Notes under the pieces: model-generated
What the model was told of the DNA's origin: nothing
The model's input: the letters and a program-made list of their open reading frames with translations, nothing else
Databases searched by the model: none
IMG/VR virus record: IMGVR_UViG_2563366838_000011
DNA length: 14,507 nucleotides
Direction: 5' to 3' (one strand)
Source of the DNA: a virus
Lineage: Duplodnaviria > Heunggongvirae > Uroviricota > Caudoviricetes
Made by a program: the position numbers and the translations under genes
Part shown: positions 1 through 14,507 of the stretch, piece after piece
How positions within the stretch are numbered: position 1 is the first letter of the stretch
How the letters are laid out: every line of letters begins with the position of its first letter

Positions 1-1254
1 ATGCTGGAACAAATGGGCATTGCCGCGAAGCAAGCCTCGTATAAATTAGCGCAACTCTCCAGCCGCGAAAAAAATCGCGTGCTGGAAAAAATCGCCGATG
101 AACTGGAAGCACAAAGCGAAATCATCCTCAACGCTAACGCCCAGGATGTTGCTGACGCGCGAGCCAATGGCCTTAGCGAAGCGATGCTTGACCGTCTGGC
201 ACTGACGCCCGCACGGCTGAAAGGCATTGCCGACGATGTACGTCAGGTGTGCAACCTCGCCGATCCGGTGGGGCAGGTAATCGATGGCGGCGTACTGGAC
301 AGCGGCCTGCGTCTTGAGCGTCGTCGCGTACCGCTGGGGGTTATTGGCGTGATTTATGAAGCGCGCCCGAACGTGACGGTTGATGTCGCTTCGCTGTGCC
401 TGAAAACCGGTAATGCGGTGATCCTGCGCGGTGGCAAAGAAACGTGTCGCACTAACGCTGCAACGGTGGCGGTGATTCAGGACGCCCTGAAATCCTGCGG
501 CTTACCGGCGGGTGCCGTGCAGGCGATTGATAATCCTGACCGTGCGCTGGTCAGTGAAATGCTGCGTATGGATAAATACATCGACATGCTGATCCCGCGT
601 GGTGGCGCTGGTTTGCATAAACTGTGCCGTGAACAGTCGACAATCCCGGTGATCACAGGTGGTATAGGCGTATGCCATATTTACGTTGATGAAAGTGTAG
701 AGATCGCTGAAGCATTAAAAGTGATCGTCAACGCGAAAACTCAGCGTCCGAGCACATGTAATACGGTTGAAACGTTGCTGGTGAATAAAAACATCGCCGA
801 TAGCTTCCTGCCCGCATTAAGCAAACAAATGGCGGAAAGCGGCGTGACATTACACGCAGATGCAGCTGCACTGGCGCAGTTGCAGGCAGGCCCTGCGAAG
901 GTGGTTGCTGTTAAAGCCGAAGAGTATGACGATGAGTTTCTGTCATTAGATTTGAACGTCAAAATCGTCAGCGATCTTGACGATGCCATCGCCCATATTC
1001 GTGAACACGGCACACAACACTCCGATGCGATCCTGACCCGCGATATGCGCAACGCCCAGCGTTTTGTTAACGAAGTGGATTCGTCCGCTGTTTACGTTAA
1101 CGCCTCTACGCGTTTTACCGACGGCGGCCAGTTTGGTCTGGGTGCGGAAGTGGCGGTAAGCACACAAAAACTCCACGCGCGTGGCCCAATGGGGCTGGAA
1201 GCACTGACCACTTACAAGTGGATCGGCATTGGTGATTACACCATTCGTGCGTAA
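1..1254 (+). CDS. proA: gamma-glutamyl phosphate reductase (glutamate-5-semialdehyde dehydrogenase), complete
   Basis: 417-aa ORF from ATG at 1 to TAA at 1252-1254; translation ([16 protein letters not shown]...[12 protein letters not shown]) recognised from memory as enterobacterial ProA; followed by tRNA-Thr as in the E. coli proA-thrW locus. Confidence 0.95.
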
Positions 1255-1368
1255 ATAAAACCGGGTGATGCAAAAGTAGCCATTTGATTCACAAGGCCAT
1301 TGACGCATCGCCCGGTTAGTTTTAACCTTGCCCACCGTGATTCACGTTCGTGAACATGTCCTTTCAGG

Positions 1369-1444
1369 GCCGATATAGCTCAGTTGGTAGAGCAGCGCAT
1401 TCGTAATGCGAAGGTCGTAGGTTCGACTCCTATTATCGGCACCA
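1369..1444 (+). tRNA. thrW: tRNA-Thr (anticodon CGU), 76 nt with encoded CCA
   Basis: GCCGATATAGCTCAGTTGGTAGAGCAGCGCATTCGTAATGCGAAGGTCGTAGGTTCGACTCCTATTATCGGCACCA: acceptor stem GCCGATA/TATCGGC, D-arm with AGCTCAGTTGGTAGAGC, anticodon CGT in loop TTCGTAA, T-arm GGTTCGACTCC, terminal CCA; integrase gene immediately downstream. Confidence 0.92.
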
Positions 1445-1461
1445 TTCAAACATCTCCCCAA

Positions 1462-1545
1462 GTCTACTAAAGTCTTTCAAAACCCCTTATAATCCGCGTA
1501 TTAAAGCCCCGTTCGTCTTTTGACGTCTACTAAAGTCCCTCAAAA
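1462..1545 (+). promoter_or_regulatory. att-proximal imperfect direct repeats GTCTACTAAAGTC(yyy)TCAAAA (1462-1482 and 1525-1545); candidate integrase arm-type or regulatory sites
   Basis: two copies of a 21-bp motif with a perfect 13-bp core GTCTACTAAAGTC, spaced 63 bp apart, between the tRNA 3' end and the integrase start. Confidence 0.35.
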
Positions 1546-1556
1546 TCTACGGTCAG

Positions 1557-1580
1557 ATGGGGGTACTTATGGGGGTATTT
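1557..1580 (+). repeat. tandem direct repeat ATGGGGGTACTT / ATGGGGGTATTT just upstream of the integrase RBS
   Basis: two adjacent 12-bp copies differing at one base; function unknown (possible protein-binding site in the int promoter region). Confidence 0.3.
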
Positions 1581-1609
1581 GCTGTTCGGTTTAGTGGAGG
1601 TACCCCCAA

Positions 1610-2824
1610 GTGAAACTCAATGCCCGTCAAATAGACACAGCCAAGCCAAAAGAGAAGGCTTACAAGCTGGCCGATGGTGGCGGTTTGTATCTCTTGGTAA
1701 AACCTAATGGAGGTAAATACTGGCGACTTAAATATCGTGTAGATGGTAAAGAGAAGCTATTGGCACTAGGTGTGTATCCTGAGGTTACTCTAGCCGATGC
1801 TCGGGCAAAACGTGAAGATGCGAAAAGAGGTATCGCTGGTGGTATCGATCCGATGGAAGCGAAACGAGAGGAAAAGATTGCCCGGGAAACGCAGTTAAAC
1901 AACACCTTCAAAGATATTGCCCTTGAGTGGCACAGCAGCAAATTAAAAAAATGGTCTGCTGGTTATGCTTCAGACATCCTCGAAGCCTTCAACAAAGATG
2001 TGTTCCCTTACATTGGCAAAAAACCAATCGCCGAAATCAAACCACTTGAACTTCTGAATGTGCTGCGGCGCATCGAGGGGCGCGGTGCTACAGAAAAAGC
2101 CAAAAAAGTGAGGCAGCGGTGCGGGGAAGTTTTCCGCTATGCAATAGTCACTGGTCGCGCAGAGTATAACCCTGCACCAGACCTTACTAGCGCGATGCAA
2201 GGCCATGAATCTAATCATTACCCTTTCCTTACAGCTAAAGAATTACCTGATTTTTTCAAGGCATTGTCCAGTTACTCAGGAAGCGCATTGGTTGTTATGG
2301 CGGCTCGTCTACTGATTATCACCGGCTTGCGGACTGGCGAACTACGTGGCGCATTATGGGATGAAATTGATTTCAACAAGGCTATCTGGGAGATACCCGC
2401 TTCACGTATGAAAATGCGGCGGCCTCATATTGTGCCATTGTCTGATCAGGCTCTTTCGCTTATTGGGAAGATTAGAGAAATAACAGGCAATTACCCTCTT
2501 ATGTTTCCCGGGCGCAATGATCCAAGGAAAACAATGAGTGAGGCCAGCATAAACCAAGTGTTTAAGCGCATTGGCTACGCTGGACGTGTAACTGGTCATG
2601 GGTTCCGGCACACTATGAGTACGATTTTGCATGAGCAGGGCTATAACACCGCGTGGATAGAAACGCAGCTCGCTCACGTTGATAAGAACTCAATTCGTGG
2701 CACATACAACCATGCGCAATATCTGGATGGAAGGCGGGAGATGCTTCAATGGTATGCCGACTATATGGATTCTCTCGAGCATGGCGGAAATGTGGTGCAT
2801 ATGGTGTTTGAAAAACACGCATGA
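1610..2824 (+). CDS. int: site-specific tyrosine recombinase, P4-type phage integrase
   Basis: 404-aa ORF with GTG start at 1610 preceded by GTGGAGG (1594-1600); N-terminal arm-binding-type region (AKPKEKAYKLADGGGLYLLVKPNGGKYWRLKYR), C-terminal catalytic region with HGFRHT and RGTYNHAQY motifs; placed directly beside a tRNA gene. Confidence 0.9.
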   Translation: MKLNARQIDTAKPKEKAYKLADGGGLYLLVKPNGGKYWRLKYRVDGKEKLLALGVYPEVTLADARAKREDAKRGIAGGIDPMEAKREEKIARETQLNNTFKDIALEWHSSKLKKWSAGYASDILEAFNKDVFPYIGKKPIAEIKPLELLNVLRRIEGRGATEKAKKVRQRCGEVFRYAIVTGRAEYNPAPDLTSAMQGHESNHYPFLTAKELPDFFKALSSYSGSALVVMAARLLIITGLRTGELRGALWDEIDFNKAIWEIPASRMKMRRPHIVPLSDQALSLIGKIREITGNYPLMFPGRNDPRKTMSEASINQVFKRIGYAGRVTGHGFRHTMSTILHEQGYNTAWIETQLAHVDKNSIRGTYNHAQYLDGRREMLQWYADYMDSLEHGGNVVHMVFEKHA

Positions 2825-2887
2825 AACAACTGGACAAGTATACAGAGGTTTACTAAAGTATAGGGGAGTAGATTGATAAAAACTCAC

Positions 2888-2937
2888 AGAGGATTGCTAT
2901 TTAACAGTTAGCCCTGGAGAAGGGCAATCGCTCTTTT
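2888..2937 (+). terminator. possible intrinsic terminator after int (imperfect stem AGAGGATTGC / GCAATCGCTCT followed by TTTT)
   Basis: about 10-bp imperfect stem with one bulge and a 26-nt loop containing an inner CCCT/AGGG hairpin, followed by TTTTAT; weak by sequence alone. Confidence 0.3.
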
Positions 2938-2967
2938 ATAAACGAAGGTGTATTGAGCCTTCTACGT

Positions 2968-3032
2968 CGCTGACAAAGCGGAATGTTCTTTAACAGGCTT
3001 TGGCGCTGACAAAGCGCAATTGTTCTTTAAAA
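2968..3032 (+). promoter_or_regulatory. 28-bp imperfect direct repeats CGCTGACAAAGCG-(G)AAT(T)-GTTCTTTAA (2968-2995 and 3004-3032); candidate operator sites in the int-alpA spacer
   Basis: two copies 36 bp apart, each with an internal CGCT/AGCG dyad; lie in the 428-bp non-coding spacer upstream of alpA. Confidence 0.4.
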
Positions 3033-3131
3033 CTACTGGATGTCACGCCTAATAGCGTGATCCTGCCGAAATGCAGGGTAGCTCTACCCTTGTGGAGCGA
3101 ACAAACCAAAACAATCTGACTATCTTTTATA

Positions 3132-3166
3132 AAAGACCGCAATATGTTTTTCATATTGTGGTCTTT
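3132..3166 (+). promoter_or_regulatory. 15-bp inverted repeat AAAGACCGCAATATG-TTTTT-CATATTGTGGTCTTT (one mismatch); candidate operator or RNA hairpin upstream of alpA
   Basis: near-perfect dyad with a 5-nt T spacer, about 90 bp upstream of the alpA start; not followed by a T-run, so not called a terminator. Confidence 0.35.
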
Positions 3167-3252
3167 GGCGTATTCGACATTTGACGCAAATAAAACTCTC
3201 GCCATTCGTTGCAGGAGGGGGTTATTGCGTCATTAGTACAGGATATTAATAA

Positions 3253-3456
3253 ATGGCTAATTACAATTCATTAATTCGTCTCTCTGAAGTTCAAAGGCGA
3301 ACTGGTTATAGCAAAGCATGGATTTATCGTCTTATTAGTCAGGGGAGGTTCCCTAAACAGGTAAAAATTGGAAGTCGGGCAATTGCTTTTGTTGAGTCTG
3401 AAATAGATGAATGGATTGAGAAGTGTATATTAGAATCTAGAGACGAGGTGGCCTGA
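3253..3456 (+). CDS. alpA: AlpA-family phage transcriptional regulator (small HTH DNA-binding protein)
   Basis: 67-aa ORF with AGGA 9 nt upstream; sequence LIRLSEVQRRTGYSKAWIYRLISQGRFPKQVKIGSRAIAFVESEIDEWI matches the AlpA/prophage CP4-57 regulator pattern; sits second after int as in P4-like islands and PICIs. Confidence 0.85.
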   Translation: MANYNSLIRLSEVQRRTGYSKAWIYRLISQGRFPKQVKIGSRAIAFVESEIDEWIEKCILESRDEVA

Positions 3457-3887
3457 TGGAAAAGAAAAACCGCCCATTACAGGCGGCTAATTCAGATATT
3501 CGTGTATCTGATGTTACGCCCCTTACAAAATCCCTTCAAGCACCAAAGCGCACACCGAAAAAGCATCGTGCCAGAGTCTATATGCTGCGTACTGGTATAG
3601 AGGGATGGACAGAAAATGACATTCTTCGCTACTGCCGTCTGTCTTCTGGTCGTAACTATGCAACAGAGTTAGAACGCCAGCTTGGAATCACTCTGGAGCG
3701 TATCGACGAAAAGAATCCTGATGGTATCGGAACACACCTTCGCTACCGTTTCTCCTGCCGTGGTGATGTTCTGAAAGTGATCACTCATATTAACCATCTT
3801 GCGAACATAAATGATCACAACGGACTTTCTCAGCAGGAAATTGCCGACATTCTGAAACTCTACCCGGACGCGTTTAACGCCGCCTAA
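3456..3887 (+). CDS. hypothetical protein, basic N-terminus, possible DNA-binding protein
   Basis: 143-aa ORF translationally coupled to alpA (TGATG overlap); Lys/Arg-rich N-terminal segment (PKRTPKKHRAR); no family recognised. Confidence 0.6.
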   Translation: MEKKNRPLQAANSDIRVSDVTPLTKSLQAPKRTPKKHRARVYMLRTGIEGWTENDILRYCRLSSGRNYATELERQLGITLERIDEKNPDGIGTHLRYRFSCRGDVLKVITHINHLANINDHNGLSQQEIADILKLYPDAFNAA

Positions 3888-3899
3888 CGGAGACTGAAA

Positions 3900-4733
3900 A
3901 TGAACATCGAAAAAAGCAGATTAATTTCTGAGGCCGCCCCTCATCTGAACGCCTCTCTGGGCACAATTAACGGTAATGAATTTGCCGCAATTGTCCCGGT
4001 TATTCCAGGTCACATCGGTGGGCGTGAAACCAATATTGTTAGCGCAAAAGCGTTACACAAAGCGTTGGGCGTGGGAAAAGACTTCTCTACATGGATCACT
4101 GATCGCATCTCTGAATATGACTTCACCATTGGGCACGATTACTCAGTCCATAAAACAATTTCCCCAAATTTGGGGAAAAGCCCGAATGGCACGGCTTACA
4201 GCAAGATTAAGCAGTCTGGCAGACCCGGCAAAGACTATCTGTTAAGTGTCGGAATGGCGAAAGAGCTGGCAATGATCGAACGCAATGATCAGGGTCGCGC
4301 TATCCGTCGTTATTTCATCCAGTGCGAGGAAGAATTACAGCGTAGCGTGCCTGAAATCGCCGCCCGCTATCGTCGCCAGCTAAAAGCCCGTATCAGTGCC
4401 GCAAACAACTTTAAGCCAATGTGCGATGCGCTGAATATGGCCCGTGCCGAGCAGGGGAAAACGACGCAGCAACACCACTACACAAACGAGAGCAATATGA
4501 TTTCTCGTATCGTTCTTGGAGGGCTAACTGCTAAGCAGTGGGCGCGGATAAATGGCTATTCTGGCGAACCTCGCGACCATATGAACGCAGAACAGCTTGA
4601 GCACCTCTCATATCTCGAAAGCACCAATATCACGTTAATTGATATGGGCATGGAATATGAGCAGCGCAAAGGAGAACTCACCCGCCTGTCGCAACGCTGG
4701 CTCGCCAAGCGTCTGGAGGCGGTCCATGTTTAA
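3900..4733 (+). CDS. phage antirepressor-like protein (AntA/Rha-type N-terminal domain)
   Basis: 277-aa ORF with GGAG 7 nt upstream; N-terminal motif SAKALHKALGVGKDFSTWITDRISEYDFTIGHDY resembles the conserved core of phage antirepressor (AntA/Rha) domains; assignment from motif memory only. Confidence 0.55.
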   Translation: MNIEKSRLISEAAPHLNASLGTINGNEFAAIVPVIPGHIGGRETNIVSAKALHKALGVGKDFSTWITDRISEYDFTIGHDYSVHKTISPNLGKSPNGTAYSKIKQSGRPGKDYLLSVGMAKELAMIERNDQGRAIRRYFIQCEEELQRSVPEIAARYRRQLKARISAANNFKPMCDALNMARAEQGKTTQQHHYTNESNMISRIVLGGLTAKQWARINGYSGEPRDHMNAEQLEHLSYLESTNITLIDMGMEYEQRKGELTRLSQRWLAKRLEAVHV

Positions 4734-4908
4734 GCCGACAGGAACACCACAACCTCAAAAACGCTACAAAGATGCCCACGGAGCACTCGTTACTGTCGAA
4801 AGCGTGTCTCACAACCGAGTGACGTTTTATCGCGACGGGTATCAATCGCCATGCGTACAACCGCTGGCGCGCTTCATGAAGGAGTTCGCGGAGGTTAACA
4901 AATGCTAA
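4726..4908 (+). CDS. small phage protein, DUF4222-like
   Basis: 60-aa ORF from ATG at 4726 with GGAGG 6 nt upstream, overlapping the upstream stop; pattern RYKDAHGALVTVESVSHNRVTFYRDGYQSPCVQPLARFMKEFAEV resembles small prophage proteins of the DUF4222 type (from memory). Confidence 0.5.
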   Translation: MFKPTGTPQPQKRYKDAHGALVTVESVSHNRVTFYRDGYQSPCVQPLARFMKEFAEVNKC

Positions 4909-5930
4909 CCGTCCAGAAGAAGATATTTTCACTGACTGCTATGTCGCAAAAATCCAGCAATATGACAGCAAAGTCTGGCATTAATACAGCAGATACAAGC
5001 AAAGCTTATCATTTTATGGTGGTAGGAGCGGATGCCTTAACTATGTCAGAAATTACGGTCGATGGTGTTAGCGTTGAGAAGGTCAGCGGCTGCGCCAGAG
5101 AATTTCTGGTCGTAGATGACCTGTTCTGCTCGCGTAGTGACTCCACAAAAATCTTCGTCCGCACGCGCGACGTTAACGAAATGAGCGCGATGTACTGTGC
5201 CTCTGGTTCTTCCAATAGTGAGTTTTCGGAGTCCATAAAAAAGAGCTTGCCGTTATGCGGCAACACGGTTTATGGTTATAAGGCACCTCATAAAACGGGT
5301 GCCGGGATTAGGACCCCGCAGGCAATCGAGGCGATACATGACGCGCCAGCGTCTTTTTTTGTATCGGCGCACACGCACACCTTATCAATGGTGGGCTGTA
5401 TGGGGCTGACTTCGGTCAGGCTGGTTTCCTTGATTGCCAGTAGTCCTAACCCTGTACAGTCCACCGCCAGCGAGCTTAGGACCTCCGGCGGTGGCTATAA
5501 ACCATCAATCAAGGAGGCTGCCACATGCTGGCTACTACCCCTACCCAAAAACCGCAATTTATCTGGATTATCGCCGCAGTTCGCCGCGATTGCCCGACAA
5601 TTACCGCCAAAATTCATCATATTGCTGCCGAGTCTGAACGCGATGCTCGCCGTTCTCTGGTGCGCGATCACATCTGCTTTTTTGCTGGTCGTATCCGCAT
5701 GGAGGTGGCACATGATTAAAACCTACGATGTGCATATGGATCCCCTCGAACGCACAAGCCAGATCATCACACTGACAGAAGTGATTAACGACATTCTGGT
5801 GAGCAACTCTCCCTCACGAGACGAAAGACTGAAGGCGTTACTCGCGATATTGGATCTCGCCGTTCGTGACGTTCATTTCCTGCTGGAAGGTGGACAAATG
5901 CCATGCAAAACGGGGGCAACCAATGAATAA
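4902..5930 (+). CDS. uncertain long ORF (342 codons); N-terminal about 125 codons protein-like, remainder of doubtful coding character
   Basis: ATG at 4902 overlaps the upstream stop (ATGCTAA) with GGAGG 9 nt upstream; the frame stays open for 1029 nt, but 5280-5520 translates to low-complexity S/T/P/L-rich sequence and contains hairpins and a terminator-like structure; the last 72 codons (from ATG 5712) look protein-like again. Confidence 0.3.
5340..5360 (+). terminator. terminator-like hairpin GACGC-GCCA-GCGTC followed by TTTTTTT, inside the long ORF
   Basis: 5-bp GC-rich stem, 4-nt loop, 7-T run at 5354-5360; a UUCG-tetraloop hairpin (CTGAC-TTCG-GTCAG, 5405-5418) and an 8-bp dyad (CCACCGCC...GGCGGTGG, 5461-5494) lie just downstream. 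Confidence 0.3.
5525..5719 (+). CDS. hypothetical small protein, alternative frame nested in the long ORF
   Basis: 64-aa ORF with strong SD (AAGGAGG) 7 nt upstream of ATG 5525; translation ([22 protein letters not shown]...RIRMEVAHD) is more protein-like than the overlapping frame of the long ORF. Confidence 0.35.
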   Translation: MLATTPTQKPQFIWIIAAVRRDCPTITAKIHHIAAESERDARRSLVRDHICFFAGRIRMEVAHD

Positions 5931-6117
5931 CTCAATTAATACCCCTCGCCTTACGTCCGCACTTCAATTAATCGAGCAAGCAGCGGCTGTCCTGGTTGCT
6001 GTCAGTCTTTCGGCTGAAGAAATGGACGCTGCTGATGTCGTGGATGCGATTAAAGCGTGCTCATCTTTGGTTAACGATGCCCGTGCCGAGCTGGTAATTC
6101 TTGGGGGTGAAAAATGA
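5923..6117 (+). CDS. hypothetical small protein (64 aa)
   Basis: ATG at 5923 overlapping the upstream stop (ATGAATAA); in frame with the track ORF 5866-6117; first gene of a coupled small-gene operon. Confidence 0.5.
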   Translation: MNNSINTPRLTSALQLIEQAAAVLVAVSLSAEEMDAADVVDAIKACSSLVNDARAELVILGGEK

Positions 6118-6377
6118 ATATCAACTTAATTTATCGTCATCCGTGTGAGCTGGAAATTGAATCATTGCTGGGGCGCGAAGAGCCATATCCAGACACATTC
6201 ACTCCCGCAGATTGCGCGACTGAACGGCTTACCAGAGCGCGCACAGGTCTGGTTCATGTGATGAATGAGATTGTTCCCTCGGTGGGAGGGGAACAGGCGA
6301 CAGTAATCAATAGCTGGCTACAAAAAGTTACCTCCCTGATAGATATCGGTTTAATCGATGTGGAGAGTGCGAAATGA
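6114..6377 (+). CDS. hypothetical protein (87 aa)
   Basis: ATGA start/stop overlap with the upstream gene, GGGGTG upstream; no family recognised. Confidence 0.55.
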   Translation: MNINLIYRHPCELEIESLLGREEPYPDTFTPADCATERLTRARTGLVHVMNEIVPSVGGEQATVINSWLQKVTSLIDIGLIDVESAK

Positions 6378-6595
6378 CCAACATCCAGCTCATTGAAGCG
6401 CAATGTCGCATCGAACAGGTTCAGACTGTTTTAGGGTTCTGGCTTGAAGGGGCCAGCCCCAGCAACAGAGACAAGTTAATGATTGGCGCGGTTATGTCAC
6501 TGCTCAATGGCGTACCAGAAGCTATTCAGGAAGCGGACGAATTGTTGGGCAAATATGAGTTACAGAATCATTCAGGCGAGGCGAAACATGAATAA
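6374..6595 (+). CDS. hypothetical protein (73 aa)
   Basis: ATGA overlap with the upstream gene, GGAGAG upstream; no family recognised. Confidence 0.55.
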   Translation: MTNIQLIEAQCRIEQVQTVLGFWLEGASPSNRDKLMIGAVMSLLNGVPEAIQEADELLGKYELQNHSGEAKHE

Positions 6596-7190
6596 TTTCT
6601 TAACTTTCCATGCAGAAGCAACGCCTGACGGCGTAAACATCATGTACCGCAGCAACGATGGCATGACAGAACGCGTTGAGACCGTCTCATATATTGATGC
6701 CGTAAATCGTCTGGATGCCGGGGATTATGACGATAAACCAGATGAAGGCATGTTTATACATCTCGCTATTGCCAGTGGCGGCAACCAGGGATATTTCGAT
6801 TACACATCACAGCATCACGTGATTATGTGGCGCTGGCTGATAGCAACAGCATTCATCAATGAAATGAGAAAGGAAAACGGCACTGTCAGCATCATTGATG
6901 ATACTGGCAATCCTTCCGAAGTGGCTGTTTATTCCAACGGCATCGTCGCCATGCCGCTGTATCCAGTAGCAGAGCGCCTCGCTATGGCAAACAACATTGA
7001 GGGCGCGATGATAGAACGTTTTGGCATCGAGTCTGGCACAGAACGCGCCATCATTTTCTACAGAGCCATGATGGATGTGGAACAAGGAGCACTGACTCCA
7101 TTTGGTCGTGAAACGCTTGCTGAACTTCACAACAGCTTTATAGCTGAACTGAATGAAAACGGCATGCCAGCGGAACCAGTGACGCACTGA
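6588..7190 (+). CDS. hypothetical protein (200 aa)
   Basis: ATG at 6588 overlapping the upstream stop by 8 nt, GAGG upstream; in frame with the track ORF 6483-7190, whose upstream extension would overlap the previous gene extensively; no family recognised. Confidence 0.6.
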   Translation: MNNFLTFHAEATPDGVNIMYRSNDGMTERVETVSYIDAVNRLDAGDYDDKPDEGMFIHLAIASGGNQGYFDYTSQHHVIMWRWLIATAFINEMRKENGTVSIIDDTGNPSEVAVYSNGIVAMPLYPVAERLAMANNIEGAMIERFGIESGTERAIIFYRAMMDVEQGALTPFGRETLAELHNSFIAELNENGMPAEPVTH

Positions 7191-7200
7191 GGATGGAGCC

Positions 7201-7542
7201 ATGATTACTAAAAATTTCCGACTGAATGCGCTGGCAAATAAGTATGCGTCAGCACTGTATAACCACATTACCTCCACCAGCGGCGGGGACTATTTCATGA
7301 TTGATGCGGACGGAGAGGCCGTCCGTGTGGAAATCGTCAATGGAGTAAAAGGCGTTCGCAGCCTGATCGATAGTTACGCACTGGCAGCCATGAAAGTGTT
7401 CTACCCGCAGTGGGAAACCGTGGGGATCGAGCTTCTTGATCGTTGCGTCACTAAGGACAGATTGACTGACGTCGGGCGTGAGATATGGCAAAGCATGGTT
7501 AATGACATGGGCGCAACTGTAGCGGGAGGTTCTCATGCGTGA
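7201..7542 (+). CDS. hypothetical protein (113 aa)
   Basis: ATG at 7201 with GAGGATGGAG upstream, 10 nt after the upstream stop; no family recognised. Confidence 0.6.
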   Translation: MITKNFRLNALANKYASALYNHITSTSGGDYFMIDADGEAVRVEIVNGVKGVRSLIDSYALAAMKVFYPQWETVGIELLDRCVTKDRLTDVGREIWQSMVNDMGATVAGGSHA

Positions 7543-7906
7543 AAATGTAGAAATGGCGCTTAGCTCCGCAATCGGAGAGCAGGTGGCAAAGATTGCTGGT
7601 GCTGTGTGGATTCATAACCTTCATTCTACTGGTGAAGAGAAAATGGCAATTCAGACGCCAGAGGGACGCACCATTACTACATCTCTGAAGCCGTCAGATG
7701 TTTGTGATCTGATTTGCGCATTCATGTACCCAGCAATGAGGACTGTCCACGGCGATAAGTGGAAACTTGCGACAACCGCTGAATTTGATATGTGGCTAAA
7801 CAATGATGGCATGCTGACTGATTACGGAATAACCAAGTGGCAGATGCTAGTTAGCCATATCGCAAACGCTATAGACCACGTGGGGTACGGTGATGCGAAA
7901 CATTGA
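7535..7906 (+). CDS. hypothetical protein (123 aa)
   Basis: ATG at 7535 with GGGAGG upstream, overlaps the upstream stop by 8 nt and the primase start; no family recognised. Confidence 0.6.
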   Translation: MRENVEMALSSAIGEQVAKIAGAVWIHNLHSTGEEKMAIQTPEGRTITTSLKPSDVCDLICAFMYPAMRTVHGDKWKLATTAEFDMWLNNDGMLTDYGITKWQMLVSHIANAIDHVGYGDAKH

Positions 7907-10649
7907 TCTTATCCGTCAGGTTATCAGTGCGTCTGAAAACAACTGGCCTCATGTGCTGGGCTGCCTGAACATAAATGTCCCTGACTCTCCGCGCCGTCAT
8001 GCTCCCTGCCCTGCATGTGGGGGCAAAGATCGATTCCGGTTCGATGACAACGGGCGCGGTAGCTTCATCTGTAATCAGTGCGGCGCTGGTGATGGGCTGG
8101 ATTTAATTAAACGCGTAAATAACTGCGACACAACAGAGGCGGCGCTTCTTGCCGCTGATGTTCTGGGTATTGATTACCGGACAACGGAAACACCAGAAGC
8201 CACCAGCCAGAAACGGGAACAACTGGAAACCGAGCGCCAGCGACGCGAACAGGAGCGCCTGAAAAGGGCAGAGAAGGACGAACAACAAAGACGGGATACG
8301 TTTTCCCGTCAGTTTGATGACATGCGCAGAAAGGCTGTAAACGGCAAATCTGATTATCTGGTTGCGAAAGGGGTAGGTGATTTTACATTCCCCGTGTTGC
8401 CCGATGGATCTCTGTTGCTGGCGCTGGTGGATAAATCCGGCGCAGTAACAGCAGCACAGACTATTACCTCACATGGTGAAAAAAGACTCCTGACAGGTTC
8501 AGCAAAGCGAGGGGCATATCACGCCATAAACGCACCAGAAACAACACAGAGCATCTTAATCGCAGAAGGGCTGGCAACGGCATTATCTGCCCATTTAATG
8601 CGTCCAGAGGCGCTGACAGTGGCGGCGATTGATGCCGGGAACCTGTTATATGTCGCCCAGGTACTGCGGGATAAATTTCCTTCAGCACAAATCATCATTG
8701 CTGCGGATAACGACCACAGCGAAGGAAGACAAAACACGGGGAGAATAGCAGCAGAAAAAGCAGCTTTATCTGTTTCTGGATGGGTGGCATTACCCCCGAC
8801 AGATCACAAAGCAGACTGGAATGATTACCACCAAAAACACGGCATTAAATGCGCCACAGAAGCGTTCAATAAGTCAATGTACCAACCACAGGGTAATGGC
8901 GTGAAACAGGAGCCACAGACCATTGAGGGAAGCGATTTTAAGGTTATGGATACCGATCCACTGAAACCAAGAATAGAAAGCCGCGAGGATGGTATTTATT
9001 GGGTATCTCCGAGAGCTGACAGCCAGAGTGGAGAAATCATCAATAACGAAAGCTGGTTATGTTCTCCGTTAAGCGTTATCGGTACTGGCAGAGACGATAA
9101 AGACCAGTATCTCATTCTTCGCTGGCTGTCGTTTGGTTCTGAAACGCCGACAACCGCTGCCATTCCACTGGCTGATATTGGTGAACGTGAAGGATGGCGC
9201 ACACTTAAAGCTGGTGGGGTAAATGTCACGACCAAAAGCAGCCTCAGAGCAATACTGGCAGACTGGCTACAACGCAGTGGCTCTCGTGAATTGTGGCGTG
9301 TTGCTCATGCCACTGGCTGGCAATGCGGAGCGTACATCATGCCTGATGGGGAAATCATCGGAACACCTGAAAATCCTGTGCTGTTCAGCGGGAGAAGCTC
9401 AGCCGCAGCCGGATATACCGTCTCAGGGAGCGCGAAAAGCTGGCGTGATAACGTGGCGCGTCTGGCCTTTGGTAACTATTCAATGATGACCGGGATCGGC
9501 GCAGCACTGGCAGCGCCATTGATTGGGCTGGTGGGCGCTGACGGGTTCGGCATTCATTTCTATGAGCAGTCGAGCGCAGGTAAGACCACCACGGCAAACG
9601 TGGCGAGCAGCTTATACGGCAACCCTGATTTACTGCGGCTGACGTGGTACGGAACCGCGCTGGGGCTGGCAAATGAGGCCGCCGCCCACAATGACGGACT
9701 AATGCCGCTTGATGAAGTTGGTCAGGGCGCTGATCCTGTCAGCGTTTCACAGTCTGCCTATGCGTTATTTAACGGTGTAGGGAAACTGCAAGGCGCTAAA
9801 GATGGTGGAAACCGGGATCTAAAACGCTGGCGTACAGTGGCAATCAGCACCGGAGAAATGGATTTAGAAACATTTATCGCTACTTCCGGGCGAAAAACCA
9901 AAGCCGGGCAACTGGTGCGACTGCTGAATATTCCGTTGAGTAAAGCAGTACGCTTTCACGATTACCAGAACGGAAAACAGCACGCAGACGCACTGAAAGA
10001 CGCTTACCAGCATCACCACGGCGCGTCCGGGCGTGAGTGGATTAAATGGCTGGCAGACCACCAGCAACAGGCTATTAAAACCGTTCGTGACTGCGAAAGC
10101 AGATGGAGAAGCCTGATCCCATCCGATTATGGTGAGCAGGTTCACCGTGTAGCCGCGCGATTTGCCATTCTGGAGGCCGCATTGTTGTTAGGCGAGGTTG
10201 TAACAGGCTGGGATGCTCAGACATGCCGTGATGCGATACAGCACAGCTATAACGCATGGTTGCGCGAGTTCGGCACAGGTAACAAAGAGCATCAGCAGAT
10301 TATTGAACAAACGGAGGCATTTCTTAATGCCTATGGGCTTAGCCGTTTTGCACCATTTCCATACAGCCCGGCAGATTTGCCCATCAAAGATTTAGCCGGA
10401 TACCGTCAGCGTGGAGAACATGACGAAAGCCCAATGATTTTCTACACATTCCCGGCCACATTTGAAAAGGAGATCGCATGTGGTTTCAACGCAAAACAGT
10501 TTGCTGAAGTGTTGAAAAAAGCCGGGATGCTAACCCCACCAAACAGCGGTCGTGGATACCAAAGAAAATCACCACGTATTCAGGGACGACAAATAAACGT
10601 TTATGTACTCAATTACCAGCCAGGAGATTATAACTCATCTGAAGAATGA
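7893..10649 (+). CDS. primase-helicase replication protein (P4 alpha-like / PICI Pri-Rep): zinc-ribbon, TOPRIM and P-loop NTPase domains
   Basis: 918-919-aa ORF (ATG 7893, or GTG 7890 as in the track); Cys motif CPACGG...CNQCG; TOPRIM-like segment ILIAEGLATALS...IIIAADNDH; Walker A motif SSAGKTT near residue 555; iteron origin immediately downstream. Confidence 0.88.
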   Translation: MRNIDLIRQVISASENNWPHVLGCLNINVPDSPRRHAPCPACGGKDRFRFDDNGRGSFICNQCGAGDGLDLIKRVNNCDTTEAALLAADVLGIDYRTTETPEATSQKREQLETERQRREQERLKRAEKDEQQRRDTFSRQFDDMRRKAVNGKSDYLVAKGVGDFTFPVLPDGSLLLALVDKSGAVTAAQTITSHGEKRLLTGSAKRGAYHAINAPETTQSILIAEGLATALSAHLMRPEALTVAAIDAGNLLYVAQVLRDKFPSAQIIIAADNDHSEGRQNTGRIAAEKAALSVSGWVALPPTDHKADWNDYHQKHGIKCATEAFNKSMYQPQGNGVKQEPQTIEGSDFKVMDTDPLKPRIESREDGIYWVSPRADSQSGEIINNESWLCSPLSVIGTGRDDKDQYLILRWLSFGSETPTTAAIPLADIGEREGWRTLKAGGVNVTTKSSLRAILADWLQRSGSRELWRVAHATGWQCGAYIMPDGEIIGTPENPVLFSGRSSAAAGYTVSGSAKSWRDNVARLAFGNYSMMTGIGAALAAPLIGLVGADGFGIHFYEQSSAGKTTTANVASSLYGNPDLLRLTWYGTALGLANEAAAHNDGLMPLDEVGQGADPVSVSQSAYALFNGVGKLQGAKDGGNRDLKRWRTVAISTGEMDLETFIATSGRKTKAGQLVRLLNIPLSKAVRFHDYQNGKQHADALKDAYQHHHGASGREWIKWLADHQQQAIKTVRDCESRWRSLIPSDYGEQVHRVAARFAILEAALLLGEVVTGWDAQTCRDAIQHSYNAWLREFGTGNKEHQQIIEQTEAFLNAYGLSRFAPFPYSPADLPIKDLAGYRQRGEHDESPMIFYTFPATFEKEIACGFNAKQFAEVLKKAGMLTPPNSGRGYQRKSPRIQGRQINVYVLNYQPGDYNSSEE

Positions 10650-10674
10650 GCTTCTTCATGTGCGTAGAAAAGGT

Positions 10675-10785
10675 GTTGGTTCAGTTGGTTCAGTTGGTTC
10701 AATTTGTAAAGAGTATTGTTTTATAAGGATTTTATTCTTTTTATTGAACCAACACTGAACCAACAACACGGTATTTTGAACCAAC
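10675..10785 (+). repeat. iteron-type replication origin: three tandem GTTGGTTCA (10675-10701), 43-bp AT-rich spacer, three inverted copies TGAACCAAC (10745-10753, 10756-10764, 10777-10785)
   Basis: read directly from sequence; sits just 3' of the primase-helicase gene, the usual ori position in P4-like satellites and PICIs; the track ORFs overlapping it (10656-10895 minus, 10716-10967 plus) are probably spurious. Confidence 0.7.
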
Positions 10786-10836
10786 ACAATGTGACTGAAT
10801 TGATGCGCACAACACCTGGCTGGCATCAGAGAGTGT

Positions 10837-10911
10837 TTTACGAGACTTTCGTAAAATCCTGTGTACAAGGGCGTGACGTTTTTGAAAGTGAGCACTACGA
10901 AATTTTCGTAG
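10837..10911 (+). promoter_or_regulatory. two related dyads TTTACGA-N5-TCGTAAA (10837-10855) and CTACGAA-ATT-TTCGTAG (10895-10911); candidate operator pair
   Basis: 7-bp perfect inverted arms sharing an ACGA/TCGT core, about 58 bp apart, in the non-coding region between the ori and the downstream operon. Confidence 0.3.
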
Positions 10912-11105
10912 TTCAGAAAACAGCCTCTGAGAAGTTGTTATGCCTGTTCAGCAAACCATCCGCATAGCTGATCGCGAATCAAATTACCAATGGAGCCAGA
11001 AGCAAGGGCAGAACTGAAAAGCGCCTGCCGTGAAGAGTAATGCGACACCATAAATATAGTTTTTAGAGTCCATAAAAAACCTGTCAAAACCTGACACACA
11101 GAACG

Positions 11106-11138
11106 ATGCCACCAGCTACTGAGCGGTGGCATTTTTTT
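11106..11138 (+). terminator. rho-independent terminator (8-bp stem ATGCCACC / GGTGGCAT, 11-nt loop, then TTTTTTT)
   Basis: perfect 8-bp GC-rich stem at 11106-11113 / 11125-11132 followed by 7 T at 11132-11138; oriented for + strand transcripts. Confidence 0.55.
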
Positions 11139-11233
11139 GTGCTATTTGTTTCATATTTTGCAATTACGATGATGAATATTGCGATTTGTGAAACTATAAT
11201 AACTGTTGTTTTATACAGTTCTAAGGGGGCGTT

Positions 11234-11395
11234 ATGGCTATTTCAGTAAAGCCGGTATTGATAAGTGAGAAGCAAATGGAAGCGATAAAGAAAATTCAGG
11301 AAGAGCAGCGTAAAAAATCAGGAATTGGAGTAGCGCCAACTCTGCATGAAATTGCACGAGGGTTAATAGATAAGGCGCTGGCAGGCTGTATGTGA
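11234..11395 (+). CDS. small protein (53 aa), possible ribbon-helix-helix-type DNA-binding regulator
   Basis: not in the ORF track (below its length cutoff); ATG at 11234 with AAGGGGG upstream and a TATAAT box at 11195-11200; translation MAISVKPVLISEKQMEAIKKIQEEQRKKSGIGVAPTLHEIARGLIDKALAGCM has a strand-helix-helix layout compatible with an RHH fold (inference). Confidence 0.45.
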   Translation: MAISVKPVLISEKQMEAIKKIQEEQRKKSGIGVAPTLHEIARGLIDKALAGCM

Positions 11396-11411
11396 AAATG
11401 GATGGCATCGC

Positions 11412-11873
11412 ATGGAACTAAAATTTATTGATAACCCTGTGCGATTACAGGCCTTTCTTAACGAGCCAGGCAATACCGAAAATATTGTTGAGCCGGGGCA
11501 CACGTACTACATCAAGCCTGATGCGGTATATCTCGGCATCTACGAAGGATTAGTGCTGGCTGGCGTTCATGAAGTGCGTAACTTCTGGCATAGCGTTGTT
11601 GAATGCCATGCGGTGTACGACCCCGGATTCCGTGGTGAATATGCACTGCAAGGACATCGATTATTCTGCAAATGGCTTCTCGAAAACTCACCATTCCTTA
11701 ACAGCATCACTATGGTTCCTGACACCACGAAATACGGACGGGCAATTATCCGTTTGCTTGGCGCTACCCGTGTTGGTCACCTTGATGATGCTTATATCAG
11801 ATGTGGTAAACCCGTCGGCGTAACGCTTTATCAGTTAACTCGGCAACAATATAAGGAATTCAGCGAATGTTAA
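11412..11873 (+). CDS. hypothetical phage protein (153 aa), first gene of the virion-protein-like operon
   Basis: ATG at 11412, 17 nt after the small ORF; its stop overlaps the next start (ATGTTAA); no family recognised; occupies the position of P22 gp14 in a 14-7-20-16-like gene order (positional inference only). Confidence 0.6.
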   Translation: MELKFIDNPVRLQAFLNEPGNTENIVEPGHTYYIKPDAVYLGIYEGLVLAGVHEVRNFWHSVVECHAVYDPGFRGEYALQGHRLFCKWLLENSPFLNSITMVPDTTKYGRAIIRLLGATRVGHLDDAYIRCGKPVGVTLYQLTRQQYKEFSEC

Positions 11874-12544
11874 TTACCCATATAGCTCATAAACATCTCA
11901 ATCGTGCCGTATACGAAAAAGGCGGTGATGGTGGTGCCTCTAAAGCTCAGGCGAAGGCCCAGCAGCAGGCAATTGATTTGCAGCGCGAGCAGTGGAATAC
12001 GGTGATGAATAATCTCAAGCCGTATGCAGAAGTCGGATTGCCTGCTTTACAACAACTACAAGGACTGATGACTCTGGAAGGGCAGAATAAAGCCGCGAAT
12101 GATTTCTTTGGTTCTGGTTTATATAAAACACAGGCAGATCAGGCCCGTTATCAGAACCTTGTCTCAGCAGAAGCTACCGGGGGGCTTGGCTCAACAGCTA
12201 CCAGTAACCAGTTATCTTCCATTGCGCCCATGCTTTATAACAATTGGCTTAGTGGGCAAATGCAAAATTATGGAAACCTGCTAAATGTCGGGATGAATGC
12301 GGCATCAGGGCAGGCAACGGCAGGGCAAAACTACGCCAATAATACCGGACAACTCTTGCAGGGGCTTGGCGCTATTCGTGCAGGTCAGGCGCAGCAGCCA
12401 TCCAGTCTTGCGCGTGGTATTGGTGGGGCAGCATCAGGCGCTTTAGCGGGTGCGCAACTTGGTTCCGTTGTTCCTGGAATAGGAACTGCGGCCGGCGCTA
12501 TTGGTGGTGGGCTTATTGGTCTTGTTGGGGGGCTTGGATTCTAA
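11867..12544 (+). CDS. putative phage DNA-ejection/internal virion protein with C-terminal glycine-zipper segment
   Basis: 225-aa ORF with AAGGA upstream; Gln/Asn/Ala-rich middle; C-terminus GIGGAASGALAGAQLGSVVPGIGTAAGAIGGGLIGLVGGLGF made of GxxxG/GxxxA repeats typical of membrane-inserting glycine zippers; size and position resemble P22 gp7-type ejection proteins (inference). Confidence 0.6.
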   Translation: MLITHIAHKHLNRAVYEKGGDGGASKAQAKAQQQAIDLQREQWNTVMNNLKPYAEVGLPALQQLQGLMTLEGQNKAANDFFGSGLYKTQADQARYQNLVSAEATGGLGSTATSNQLSSIAPMLYNNWLSGQMQNYGNLLNVGMNAASGQATAGQNYANNTGQLLQGLGAIRAGQAQQPSSLARGIGGAASGALAGAQLGSVVPGIGTAAGAIGGGLIGLVGGLGF

Positions 12545-13863
12545 TGGCGACATGGCAACTTGGCGGGCTGCCTAGCATGGCACCGCAAAATGATAATGCT
12601 CCTCGTTCTTCCGTTCCTCAGCCTGTGCAGTATCAGCAGCAGCCAAACGTAGGTTTAATGGCGCTACAGGGGCTAAGAGGCGTTGCTGAGATTAATCAGC
12701 AGGCGCAAATTTCCCAGCAGCTAAAAGAATATCAGGCACGGTTGGGTAGTGCGGTAGCTAATAATGATCGTGTTGGCGTGCATAAGTTAATGGCCCAGTA
12801 TCCCCAGTTTATGGCTGATTCTCAAAAACAGATGGGATTCATTGATGCTGAGCAAAATCGGCAGACCGCTGACGCTGCCATGAATCTGCGTCTTGCGTCA
12901 CAAACTGGAGATCCACTGACCATGCAGAAGGCCATTCAGCAGGCAAATCCAGTATTACAGCGATTTGGTCTTCCTGCTGAAGAGGTTTATCAGTCTTGGC
13001 AGAATGACCCACAGGAATTCAACAGAATCACTGACCTCATCCACCTCCATGCTGATCCAAATAGTTACTTTAGTGTTCAAGAGAAGCAGCAAGGGCAGAG
13101 TATTGCACAGCAGAACGCAGATACATCTGCATATAATGCTCAGGTTAATGCGGAGCAGGGTAATCGGCGGCTCGATATGGAGCAGTTCAAAGTCCTATCC
13201 GATAACCAACTACGCACGAGAGAAATGGTTCTGAAAGCACGACTTGGACGTGCTCAAAATGACATCGAGAGAGACAAGCTCAATGCTGAACTGAGCAAGG
13301 TACAGCAGGCGAAAGTGGAGAAGATGAACGATAAAATTAATACTGTTGCAGGTAATATCGACTCCTTGAACTCTGCGCTTGAAGTGGGTCATGAACTGGC
13401 GGGAATTGTAGGGAAACATCCTTCGGCCGTTACCCGTTCGCAGAACTATAACCCCCTGACGCTGGGGTTTGGATTCCTCCCTGATGTAGCAGAAGACACA
13501 CGAAGCCTACGCGCCAAAGCTGATGAATACAACCTAAAGGTTATTCTGCCTAGCCTAAAAGGTACTTTTGGCTCTAACCCAACCGAAGGGGAAAGGGCTG
13601 CCCTTATGCAATCTCAAAATGGCATTAAGTCAGCAACCAGCAATGAGGCATTTTTGCGAGAGTTGAATAAAGCGCAGGACGTAATTATTCGAATGCAGAA
13701 ACGACAGATTGCCGGGCTCGGTATTCCTGTAACCAAATCTAAGGACGAAGAAACTGATACCAAAATGCTGTTGCAGGATCCTTCACTGGTTAAGGATTAT
13801 GTGACCGCACATGGCTATCTGCCGGAAAGTTACTATCAGGCAAAACTTAAGGGATGGCAATGA
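12544..13863 (+). CDS. putative phage ejection/internal virion protein, Gln-rich coiled-coil protein (439 aa)
   Basis: start overlaps the upstream stop (TAATG); very Gln/Ala/Asn-rich with heptad-like charged stretches (LRTREMVLKARLGRAQNDIERDKLNAELSKVQQAKVEKMNDKIN); no family recognised; positional analog of P22 gp20 or T7 gp15 (inference). Confidence 0.6.
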   Translation: MATWQLGGLPSMAPQNDNAPRSSVPQPVQYQQQPNVGLMALQGLRGVAEINQQAQISQQLKEYQARLGSAVANNDRVGVHKLMAQYPQFMADSQKQMGFIDAEQNRQTADAAMNLRLASQTGDPLTMQKAIQQANPVLQRFGLPAEEVYQSWQNDPQEFNRITDLIHLHADPNSYFSVQEKQQGQSIAQQNADTSAYNAQVNAEQGNRRLDMEQFKVLSDNQLRTREMVLKARLGRAQNDIERDKLNAELSKVQQAKVEKMNDKINTVAGNIDSLNSALEVGHELAGIVGKHPSAVTRSQNYNPLTLGFGFLPDVAEDTRSLRAKADEYNLKVILPSLKGTFGSNPTEGERAALMQSQNGIKSATSNEAFLRELNKAQDVIIRMQKRQIAGLGIPVTKSKDEETDTKMLLQDPSLVKDYVTAHGYLPESYYQAKLKGWQ

Positions 13864-14370
13864 TGGCACAACTGACAGAAAAACAGAAAGCCTATTCCCG
13901 TCATCTCGATGAAAAATATGGTTTCCCATCAGGGACGATGGAAACATTAGTTGGCAATGAATCTAGTGGTAACGGAAGTGCCGAGTCACCGAAAGGAGCT
14001 AGAGGATTTGCTCAACTGATGCCCTCAGTAATGAGTGATGCTGGTTATCGTGGAACAGATCCGCGCTCACTGCCATTTGAAAAGCAAATGGATATCGCAG
14101 CAAACCATCTCAATAAAGGAATGAAGCGATTTGGTGATATAGGTATGGCATTGGCTGGGTATAATTCTGGCTATGCTCGTATTAATGCCGTAAGAAACGG
14201 TAAATCTACACTGCCAGATGAAACGGCTAATTACGTAAGTAAATTTGCAGATGCCGGAATAATCCCTGATGACAGTGAAATCTTGCAGTTTGCACAAACC
14301 AGTCAACATCGCAATCTTCAGCAGCCTGACTACTCAGAGCTTGATAAAGAAATCTCTCAGGTGGGAGATA
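13860..14370 (+). CDS. lytic transglycosylase (SLT) domain protein, N-terminal part of a phage internal virion/ejection-type protein, interrupted by an IS insertion
   Basis: ATG at 13860 (AAGGG 6 nt upstream, overlaps the upstream stop); SLT family-1 motifs in order: ES in VGNESSGN, GFAQLMP, AGYNSGY; the frame runs without a stop into the IS terminus at 14371, so the native 3' part is displaced. Confidence 0.6.
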
Positions 14371-14507
14371 TGAACCGCCCCGGGTTTCCTGGAGAGTGTT
14401 TTATCTGTGAACTCAGGCTGCCAGATCATCGTTTCCGATGGAAGCATAATAAGCTTTTTCTGCTTCTGCCGGAGGAGTATGGCCCAGCCTTTCCAGCAAT
14501 CGTCGAT
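14371..14507 (-). mobile_element. IS3-family insertion sequence terminus (IS629/IS1203-like), partial, continues beyond the window
   Basis: sequence from 14371 (TGAACCGCCCCGGGTTTCCTGGAGAGTG...) matches my recollection of the IS629 terminal inverted repeat; the minus strand encodes a typical IS3-family OrfB C-terminus. Confidence 0.7.
14413..14507 (-). CDS. IS3-family transposase OrfB, C-terminal fragment (5' end outside the window)
   Basis: minus-strand translation ends ...RRLLERLGHTPPAEAEKAYYASIGNDDLAA with stop TGA (complement of 14413-14415). Confidence 0.7.
   Translation of the reverse strand, partial: RRLLERLGHTPPAEAEKAYYASIGNDDLAA

Follow-up and report, generated by a model that had tools for sequence, protein, structure and literature searches.

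An IS629 insertion in a putative DNA-transfer gene of an EcCIMP1-like island at thrW of Escherichia coli

Introduction

Why does a gene that opens with an SLT lytic-transglycosylase domain leave its expected sequence partway and run into what looks like the end of an insertion sequence (IS), 137 bp before the available sequence itself stops? The question is raised by the IMG/VR virus record IMGVR_UViG_2563366838_000011 (Duplodnaviria; Heunggongvirae; Uroviricota; Caudoviricetes), here called the window, by which we mean the whole 14,507-nucleotide stretch of DNA that was analysed. A mobile element may have landed in the gene, it may have taken the rest of the gene and of the surrounding element with it, or the join may be a product of assembly. 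Our reading, to which we give a probability of roughly 93%, is that an IS629 copy transposed into the DNA-transfer gene of an EcCIMP1-like island at thrW, after gene nucleotide (nt) 511, and that the triplet ATA was duplicated in the process.

The host island and the disrupted gene

Over positions 1-14371 the window shares 97.8-98.3% nucleotide identity with the proA-thrW-EcCIMP1 region of E. coli MP1. It starts in proA and carries tRNA-Thr(CGT) at 1369-1444, after which follow genes for an integrase, an AlpA-type regulator, an AntA-type antirepressor, an Ash-family protein, a primase and ejection proteins (Table 1). As in EcCIMP1-type islands, an integrase, AlpA, primase and PerC set was found at a tRNA, with no capsid, tail or lysis genes, and by these sequence comparisons the window is assigned to an EcCIMP1-like phage-inducible chromosomal island at proA-thrW, of which it forms the left part. 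Pfam families found upstream of the SLT gene are P22_gp7 (6.6e-73), Inj_translocase (2.3e-22) and DUF2824, and the order 14-7-20-16 is the gene order of P22. EcCIMP1 of MP1 is a phage-inducible chromosomal island that is excised and transduced with helper phage Kapi1, and its ejection-type genes have been called 'DNA transfer' or hypothetical and proposed as packaging candidates (Pick, Stadel & Raivio 2025, PMC11773190). Satellites equipped with ejection proteins of their own seem to have received little description. Elsewhere in the island, a 65-89-nt stretch between the primase and gp14 genes (window 10668-10754) has an inverted copy upstream of the perC-like gene (L011 8356-8442, L022 19909-19973; 87-95% identity).

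Table 1. Features of the window (window coordinates) and IS events in the disrupted gene (gene nt, in coordinates of the intact 2721-nt gene).
Feature	Position	Strand	Basis or occurrence
Integrase gene (int)	1610-2824		
Ash-family gene	4902-5930		Open 342-codon ORF
TOPRIM/DUF927 primase gene	7890-10649		
P22-order ejection cassette: DUF2824 (gp14-like), P22_gp7, Inj_translocase (gp20-like), SLT-gp16	11412-14370		
5' fragment of EcCIMP1-type DNA-transfer gene (SLT lytic-transglycosylase module)	13860-14370	+	Pfam SLT; match to A20 gene
ATA, left copy of 3-bp target-site duplication	14368-14370	.	IS-free sequence compared with sister scaffold
Right-end 137 bp of IS629 copy, running off window end	14371-14507	- (transposase)	137/137 vs AP019709.1 IS629
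Right terminal inverted repeat (IRR), begins TG	14371-14395	.	23/25 vs IRL of full-length copies
3' end of transposase orfB: last 30 codons (14416-14505) and TGA stop (14413-14415)	14413-14507	-	Translation RRLLERLGHTPPAEAEKAYYASIGNDDLAA, then stop
IS629	gene nt 29/30		Metagenome contig L004
IS629, duplication CTG	gene nt 352-354		Strain M15 (L007)
IS4, 12-bp duplication	gene nt 497-508		M15 and L014; proteins ending GVMP(V/I)S
IS629, duplication ATA	gene nt 509-511		Window, L002, L003
IS629 with 6-kb deletion back into primase gene, no duplication	gene nt 511/512		L008, L010, L011, L015, L016
IS629, opposite orientation	gene nt 521-523		L021
IS629, 97.4% sub-type	gene nt 567-569		L018-L020

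The start of the SLT gene overlaps the stop of the upstream gp20-like gene (ATGA), and its native part comprises 170 codons from ATG 13860 or 169 from ATG 13863. The preliminary description, made from the letters of the window, had the frame running through to 14370, and this is borne out: the plus-strand ORF is open to the window end, its part from 14371 being derived from the IS. Pfam places the SLT domain at residues 14-117 (E=1e-13), and the translation of the module contains ES, GFAQLM and GYNSG, which we take to be the three family-1 lytic-transglycosylase motifs. Positions 13860-14370 are identical to nt 1-511 of a 2721-nt gene in strain A20 (L001 6461-9181), and in IS-free E. coli the intact gene has this length, or 906 codons.

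Beyond the SLT module, the 906-codon gene matches gene 16 of phages HK620, CUS-3 and epsilon34 with 48-52% identity over residues 175-899 (tblastn, E down to 1e-175) and the DNA-transfer proteins of Dewey and Huey with 46.6% identity over 97% of its length, while the match to gp16 of P22 itself is restricted to residues 235-310. A local Pfam scan of the full 906-aa protein returned SLT and did not return the gp16 family, and the gene-16 homology was therefore set by tblastn against phages; the Phage_P22_gp16 family is on record for the 684-aa 3' fragment. Lying downstream of gp14, gp7 and gp20 homologues and being homologous to P22-like gene 16, the disrupted gene is, as judged from homology and gene order, a gene-16 DNA-transfer (ejection) protein gene of the HK620/epsilon34 type with an added SLT module. 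The insertion sits at the boundary between the two modules, the SLT module spanning residues 1 to about 170 and the gp16-like body starting at about 175. The earlier expectation that a large C-terminal part of an internal virion protein had been cut off is thus matched by the 2721-nt gene-16-type gene of the IS-free genomes.

The right end of IS629 in the window

The sequence TGAACCGCCCCGGG, taken earlier as an IS terminus, starts exactly at 14371 and occurs once in the window, which from this position begins TGAACCGCC. Positions 14371-14507 agree without a mismatch with bases 1-137 (the IRR, orfB side) of a 1310-bp element on plasmid pO145_122715_1 (AP019709.1), which carries the depositor label 'IS629 transposase OrfA/OrfB'. 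The same stretch has 24,886 matching places in 4,091 of the 5,426 complete E. coli genomes (E=1e-64); many of these are 100% matches labelled 'IS3 family transposase', and the label 'IS3-like element IS1203 family transposase' is also in use in plasmid records. On the minus strand, the transposase C-terminus that had been noticed earlier reads RRLLERLGHTPPAEAEKAYYASIGNDDLAA and is the same as that of OrfB in a full IS629 copy.

Several properties of the element agree with the IS3 family and with IS629 in particular. Its ends, in the window and in the sister scaffold described below, have the form 5'-TG...CA-3' and are imperfect inverted repeats, IRR and IRL of full copies agreeing at 30 of 40 positions when 40 nt are compared. 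The window holds the last 30 orfB codons; in full copies at allelic sites there are ORFs with HTH_Tnp_1 and HTH_21/rve domains, and in the copy of strain M15, PGAP has annotated a programmed frameshift and an AL1L pseudoknot. Full IS629 copies at neighbouring sites in the same gene (M15, GCA_050192505.1 and GCA_045573325.1) are 1310 bp long and 98.7-99.0% identical to the annotated IS629, with M15 at 98.7%. In ISfinder practice, at least 95% nucleotide identity is the convention for isoforms, and the high identity to the annotated copy AP019709.1 places the element in the IS629/IS1203/IS3411 isoform group. The name IS629 as used here follows depositor or PGAP annotation and the study of Rump et al. 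(2011, PMC3271280) rather than an ISfinder comparison. In that study, IS1203 and IS3411 are treated as isoforms of IS629, with sub-types 4-5% apart; target duplications are 3-4 bp, 62% of the copies lie within prophage-like elements, and the targets showed no sequence specificity (Rump et al. 2011, PMC3271280). The element is of an already known kind, and there is nothing new about the IS itself.

The breakpoint and the far side of the insertion

All alignments of the 72 complete E. coli genomes that hold the locus stop at 14371, and none of the 72 enters the IS. IS-free homologues are identical to the window up to this position, after which they read on as ...GATATTTCTGCATGG; a frame conserved through 14371-14507 was looked for among them, and they depart at 14371. 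Strain A20 (L001) has GGGAGATATTTCTG at the site, with a single ATA, and reads GGGAGATATTTCTGCATGG where the window has GGGAGATA followed by TGAACCGCC. In A20 coordinates, the IS entered after gene nt 511, at codon 170/171.

Sister contigs were found by look-up of the upstream ejection protein. Scaffold KE136920.1 (L002, GCA_000408145.1) is 100% identical to the window over 11,948 bases with the junction included, and contig KB731894.1 of E. coli KTE120 (L003, protein ELI46278.1) is 100% identical over 11,964 bases and stops one base past the window end. The junction of the window occurs in two separate assemblies, GCA_000326925.1 and GCA_000408145.1. L002 also continues to the other side: it reads GGGAGATA, then the IS (TGAACC...GGTTCA), then ATA and TTTCTG, with ATA at both IS ends and the far IS end reading ...GGCGGTTCA. 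Within the IS this scaffold has an N gap estimated at 1020, so that of the IS only 121 bp on one side and 379 bp on the other were read, and it is the assembler's scaffolding that connects them; after the gap come the 379 bp of the orfA-side end (...CCCGGGGCGGTTCA), ATA and TTTCTGCATGGG. Beyond the IS, gene nt 509-2721 are present at 99.95% identity with the frame open, and the island genes, perC included, continue downstream of the split gene. The two read parts of the IS match the AP019709.1 IS629 at 121/121 and 366/379 (96.6%) and the M15 copy at 120/121 and 379/379, which marks an M15-like sub-type.

The junction of the window is a simple IS629 insertion with a 3-bp ATA duplication and no flanking loss, as read in the sister scaffold L002; it is an insertion and not a deletion because L002 has the other IS end, the second ATA and an intact remainder of the gene. 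The 3-bp duplication, within the 3-4 bp of IS3-family elements, is complete in L002, and the window holds its left copy only. The window end is a draft-assembly break inside a multi-copy IS repeat, not the end of the island; short-read assemblies break in such repeats, which is why the window includes just 137 bp of the IS.

Alternative explanations

The proposal in the preliminary description that the IS may have deleted the rest of the element amounts to an IS-associated deletion, in which IS629 would have eliminated from the genome of the window the gene's 3' portion and possibly the remainder of the island. There is precedent for it, since IS629-linked deletions of about 6 kb are known at the same locus (L008, L010, L011, L015, L016) and excision enhancer (IEE)-promoted adjacent deletions that leave IS629 intact have been described (PMC9330008); moreover, the window stops inside the IS, with its own far side outside the window. 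However, the deletions at this locus take the upstream side, which the window retains, and L002, the only IS-spanning assembly with the exact junction, shows ATA cleanly duplicated and retains both the complete 3' part and the genes downstream. We regard such a loss as very unlikely. The target-site duplication and the remainder of the SLT gene, both of which the preliminary description had proposed to seek beyond the IS, were found in this scaffold as ATA and nt 509-2721.

That a repeat end was wrongly joined to the contig, with no real insertion behind it, is a natural suspicion for a feature at the extreme end of both the window and the KTE120 contig, where mis-joins are commonest. The same junction is nevertheless present in GCA_000326925.1 and GCA_000408145.1, and the latter has the opposite junction as well, with the duplicated 3 bp in agreement. 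A chance mis-join would not give such a pair, and an artefact is extremely improbable. The identity of the element might be questioned instead, as a hybrid or another isoform of the IS3 family could share its terminal 140 bp or so with IS629; the far 379 bp of L002 reach only 96.6% identity with the pO145 IS629 copy, and IS629 sub-types differ by 4-5% (PMC3271280). The same 379 bp nonetheless match, at 379/379, the 1310-bp M15 copy, which is itself 98.7% identical to annotated IS629 over its full length, and Rump et al. (PMC3271280) treat variation of this extent as internal to the IS629/IS1203/IS3411 isoform group, so a different IS3-family member is highly improbable. An insertion of IS629 remains the preferred reading, and the claim that an IS3-family, IS629-like element truncates the SLT-domain gene agrees with the 137/137 match on one side and the IS-free gene of 906 codons on the other.

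Predicted consequences of the insertion

In the proposed scenario, an IS629 copy would have transposed into the P22/HK620 gene-16-type ejection gene of an EcCIMP1-like island at thrW, duplicating the target triplet ATA on insertion after gene nt 511 and coming to lie with its transposase antisense to the DNA-transfer gene. By analogy with other IS3-family elements, the mechanism was probably copy-out-paste-in. The genome from which the window derives would be expected to have the same far side as L002, with a predicted far junction of the form IRL-ATA-TTTCTGCATGG within about 1.3 kb.

The 5' product is predicted to be a protein of about 222 aa, made of 169 native residues (from ATG 13863) and 53 IS-encoded ones, when the 5' fragment is joined in silico to one full IS629 copy. 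The 3' fragment would be promoterless and would lack a start at the junction, its first in-frame ATG giving 684 aa, and the full-length ejection protein is probably lost. Neither form of the predicted 222/223-aa SLT-IS fusion has an exact match in the protein collection, where only partial proteins from contig ends, such as that of 216 aa from KTE120, are present. Annotation pipelines will report such a split gene as a 'lytic transglycosylase' of about 220 aa and a 684-aa fragment. The split gene is also a natural knock-out, from which it may be asked whether a satellite needs its own ejection protein for transfer by a P22-like helper; transfer of the island after the split depends on whether gp16 of the helper can substitute.

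The outward-facing IS end had been thought relevant to the expression of neighbouring genes, and for this effect we found no support. A consensus promoter scan of 13700-14507 gave no sigma-70-like site, either at the IS end or spanning the junction; its single hit, at 13860-13832 on the minus strand, is no more than shuffles give. As the transposase is antisense to the gene, any transcription leaving the IRR would run antisense to the genes for the ejection proteins. Inside the IRR there is a weak terminator-like hairpin at 14380-14392 on the plus strand, with a 5-bp stem followed by a T-rich run (a consensus match only), which might reduce transcription passing from the truncated gene into the IS.

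Distribution of the junction

The gene is present at 99% identity or more in 74 of 5,426 complete RefSeq E. coli genomes, and the 300-nt region around the site is uninterrupted in 71 of the 72 complete genomes that match it, on which ground the idea that IS disruption is common in complete genomes was rejected. The junction of the window was found in none of the 72 complete locus-bearing RefSeq E. coli genomes and was seen in draft assemblies only. An exact scan for the 36-nt junction in contigs with one genome per species gave no match, which is uninformative because the junction is strain-specific, and a comparison of 13400-14507 with phage and plasmid collections matched the IS part alone.

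These counts bear on lineage typing, the other use that had been suggested for the IS end. With absence from the 72 complete genomes and presence in at least two draft assemblies, use of the junction as a lineage marker is plausible, and it would offer a cheap PCR marker for the KTE120-like lineage.

Other IS events in the same gene

The gene has been entered by IS elements more than once (Table 1). The first 570 of its 2721 nt (equivalent to window 13888-14430) contain one IS4 insertion and at least six IS629 insertions of independent origin, and four independent junctions, one of IS4 (497-508) and three of IS629 (509-511, 511/512 and 521-523), lie within 27 nt. Several of the alleles were found via clusters of N-terminal protein fragments, so that the sample is biased. 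In the IS-free gene the two arms of an 11-nt imperfect palindrome, AGAAATCTCTC / GAGATATTTCT, flank the site; they are 91% complementary and 6 nt apart (L001 6949-6959 and 6966-6976; window 14348-14358 and 14365-14370, the right arm being cut by the IS). The SLT-gp16 linker could be a genuine insertion hot spot, through palindrome-directed targeting or through repeated selection against the ejection protein, and we hold this only as a tentative and rather doubtful suggestion.

In the deletion allele (L008, L010, L011, L015, L016), the left end of IS629 is at gene nt 512 and its right end at the primase gene. The IS629 is intact, the primase side lies at about codon 163, no target sequence is duplicated, and the equivalent of window 8383-14373 (about 6 kb) has been lost, which takes away gp14, gp7, gp20 and the SLT region as well as most of the primase gene. 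Descent of this allele (L008, L011) from that of the window was considered and rejected because its left-end junction lacks the ATA triplet. IS629-adjacent deletions have been attributed to the excision enhancer IEE (PMC9330008).

Comparison with known systems

The closest relative of the island is EcCIMP1 of MP1, with which it has in common the proA-thrW site, the gene order and 97.8-98.3% identity over 1-14371. The two differ in that the 906-codon gene (SID94_RS17330) is intact in MP1 and split by IS629 here, whereas the Ash-family gene is an incomplete pseudogene in MP1 and an open 342-codon ORF here. The disrupted gene resembles the gene-16 proteins of HK620, CUS-3 and epsilon34 in sequence (48-52% identity) and in its place after gp14 (DUF2824), gp7 and gp20 homologues, and an N-terminal SLT module is common to the satellite gene and the SLT-gp16 fusions of phages Dewey and Huey. 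Unlike in P22-like phages, however, the DNA-transfer gene lies here on a satellite island without head, tail or lysis genes.

The deletion allele fits 'type d' of the IEE/IS629-associated deletions of EHEC (PMC9330008), whereas the allele of the window has no deletion. The inserted element is like IS629 and its isoforms IS1203 and IS3411 in its visible 137 bp, which are identical, in its TG...CA ends and in its 3-bp duplication; its location in a prophage-like element is also typical. The full copies at allelic sites have the orfA/orfB arrangement with a frameshift and a length of 1310 bp. Compared with IS629 of Shigella and E. coli, the element itself, as far as it is read, shows no differences, and what sets this copy apart is an insertion site absent from complete RefSeq E. 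coli genomes.
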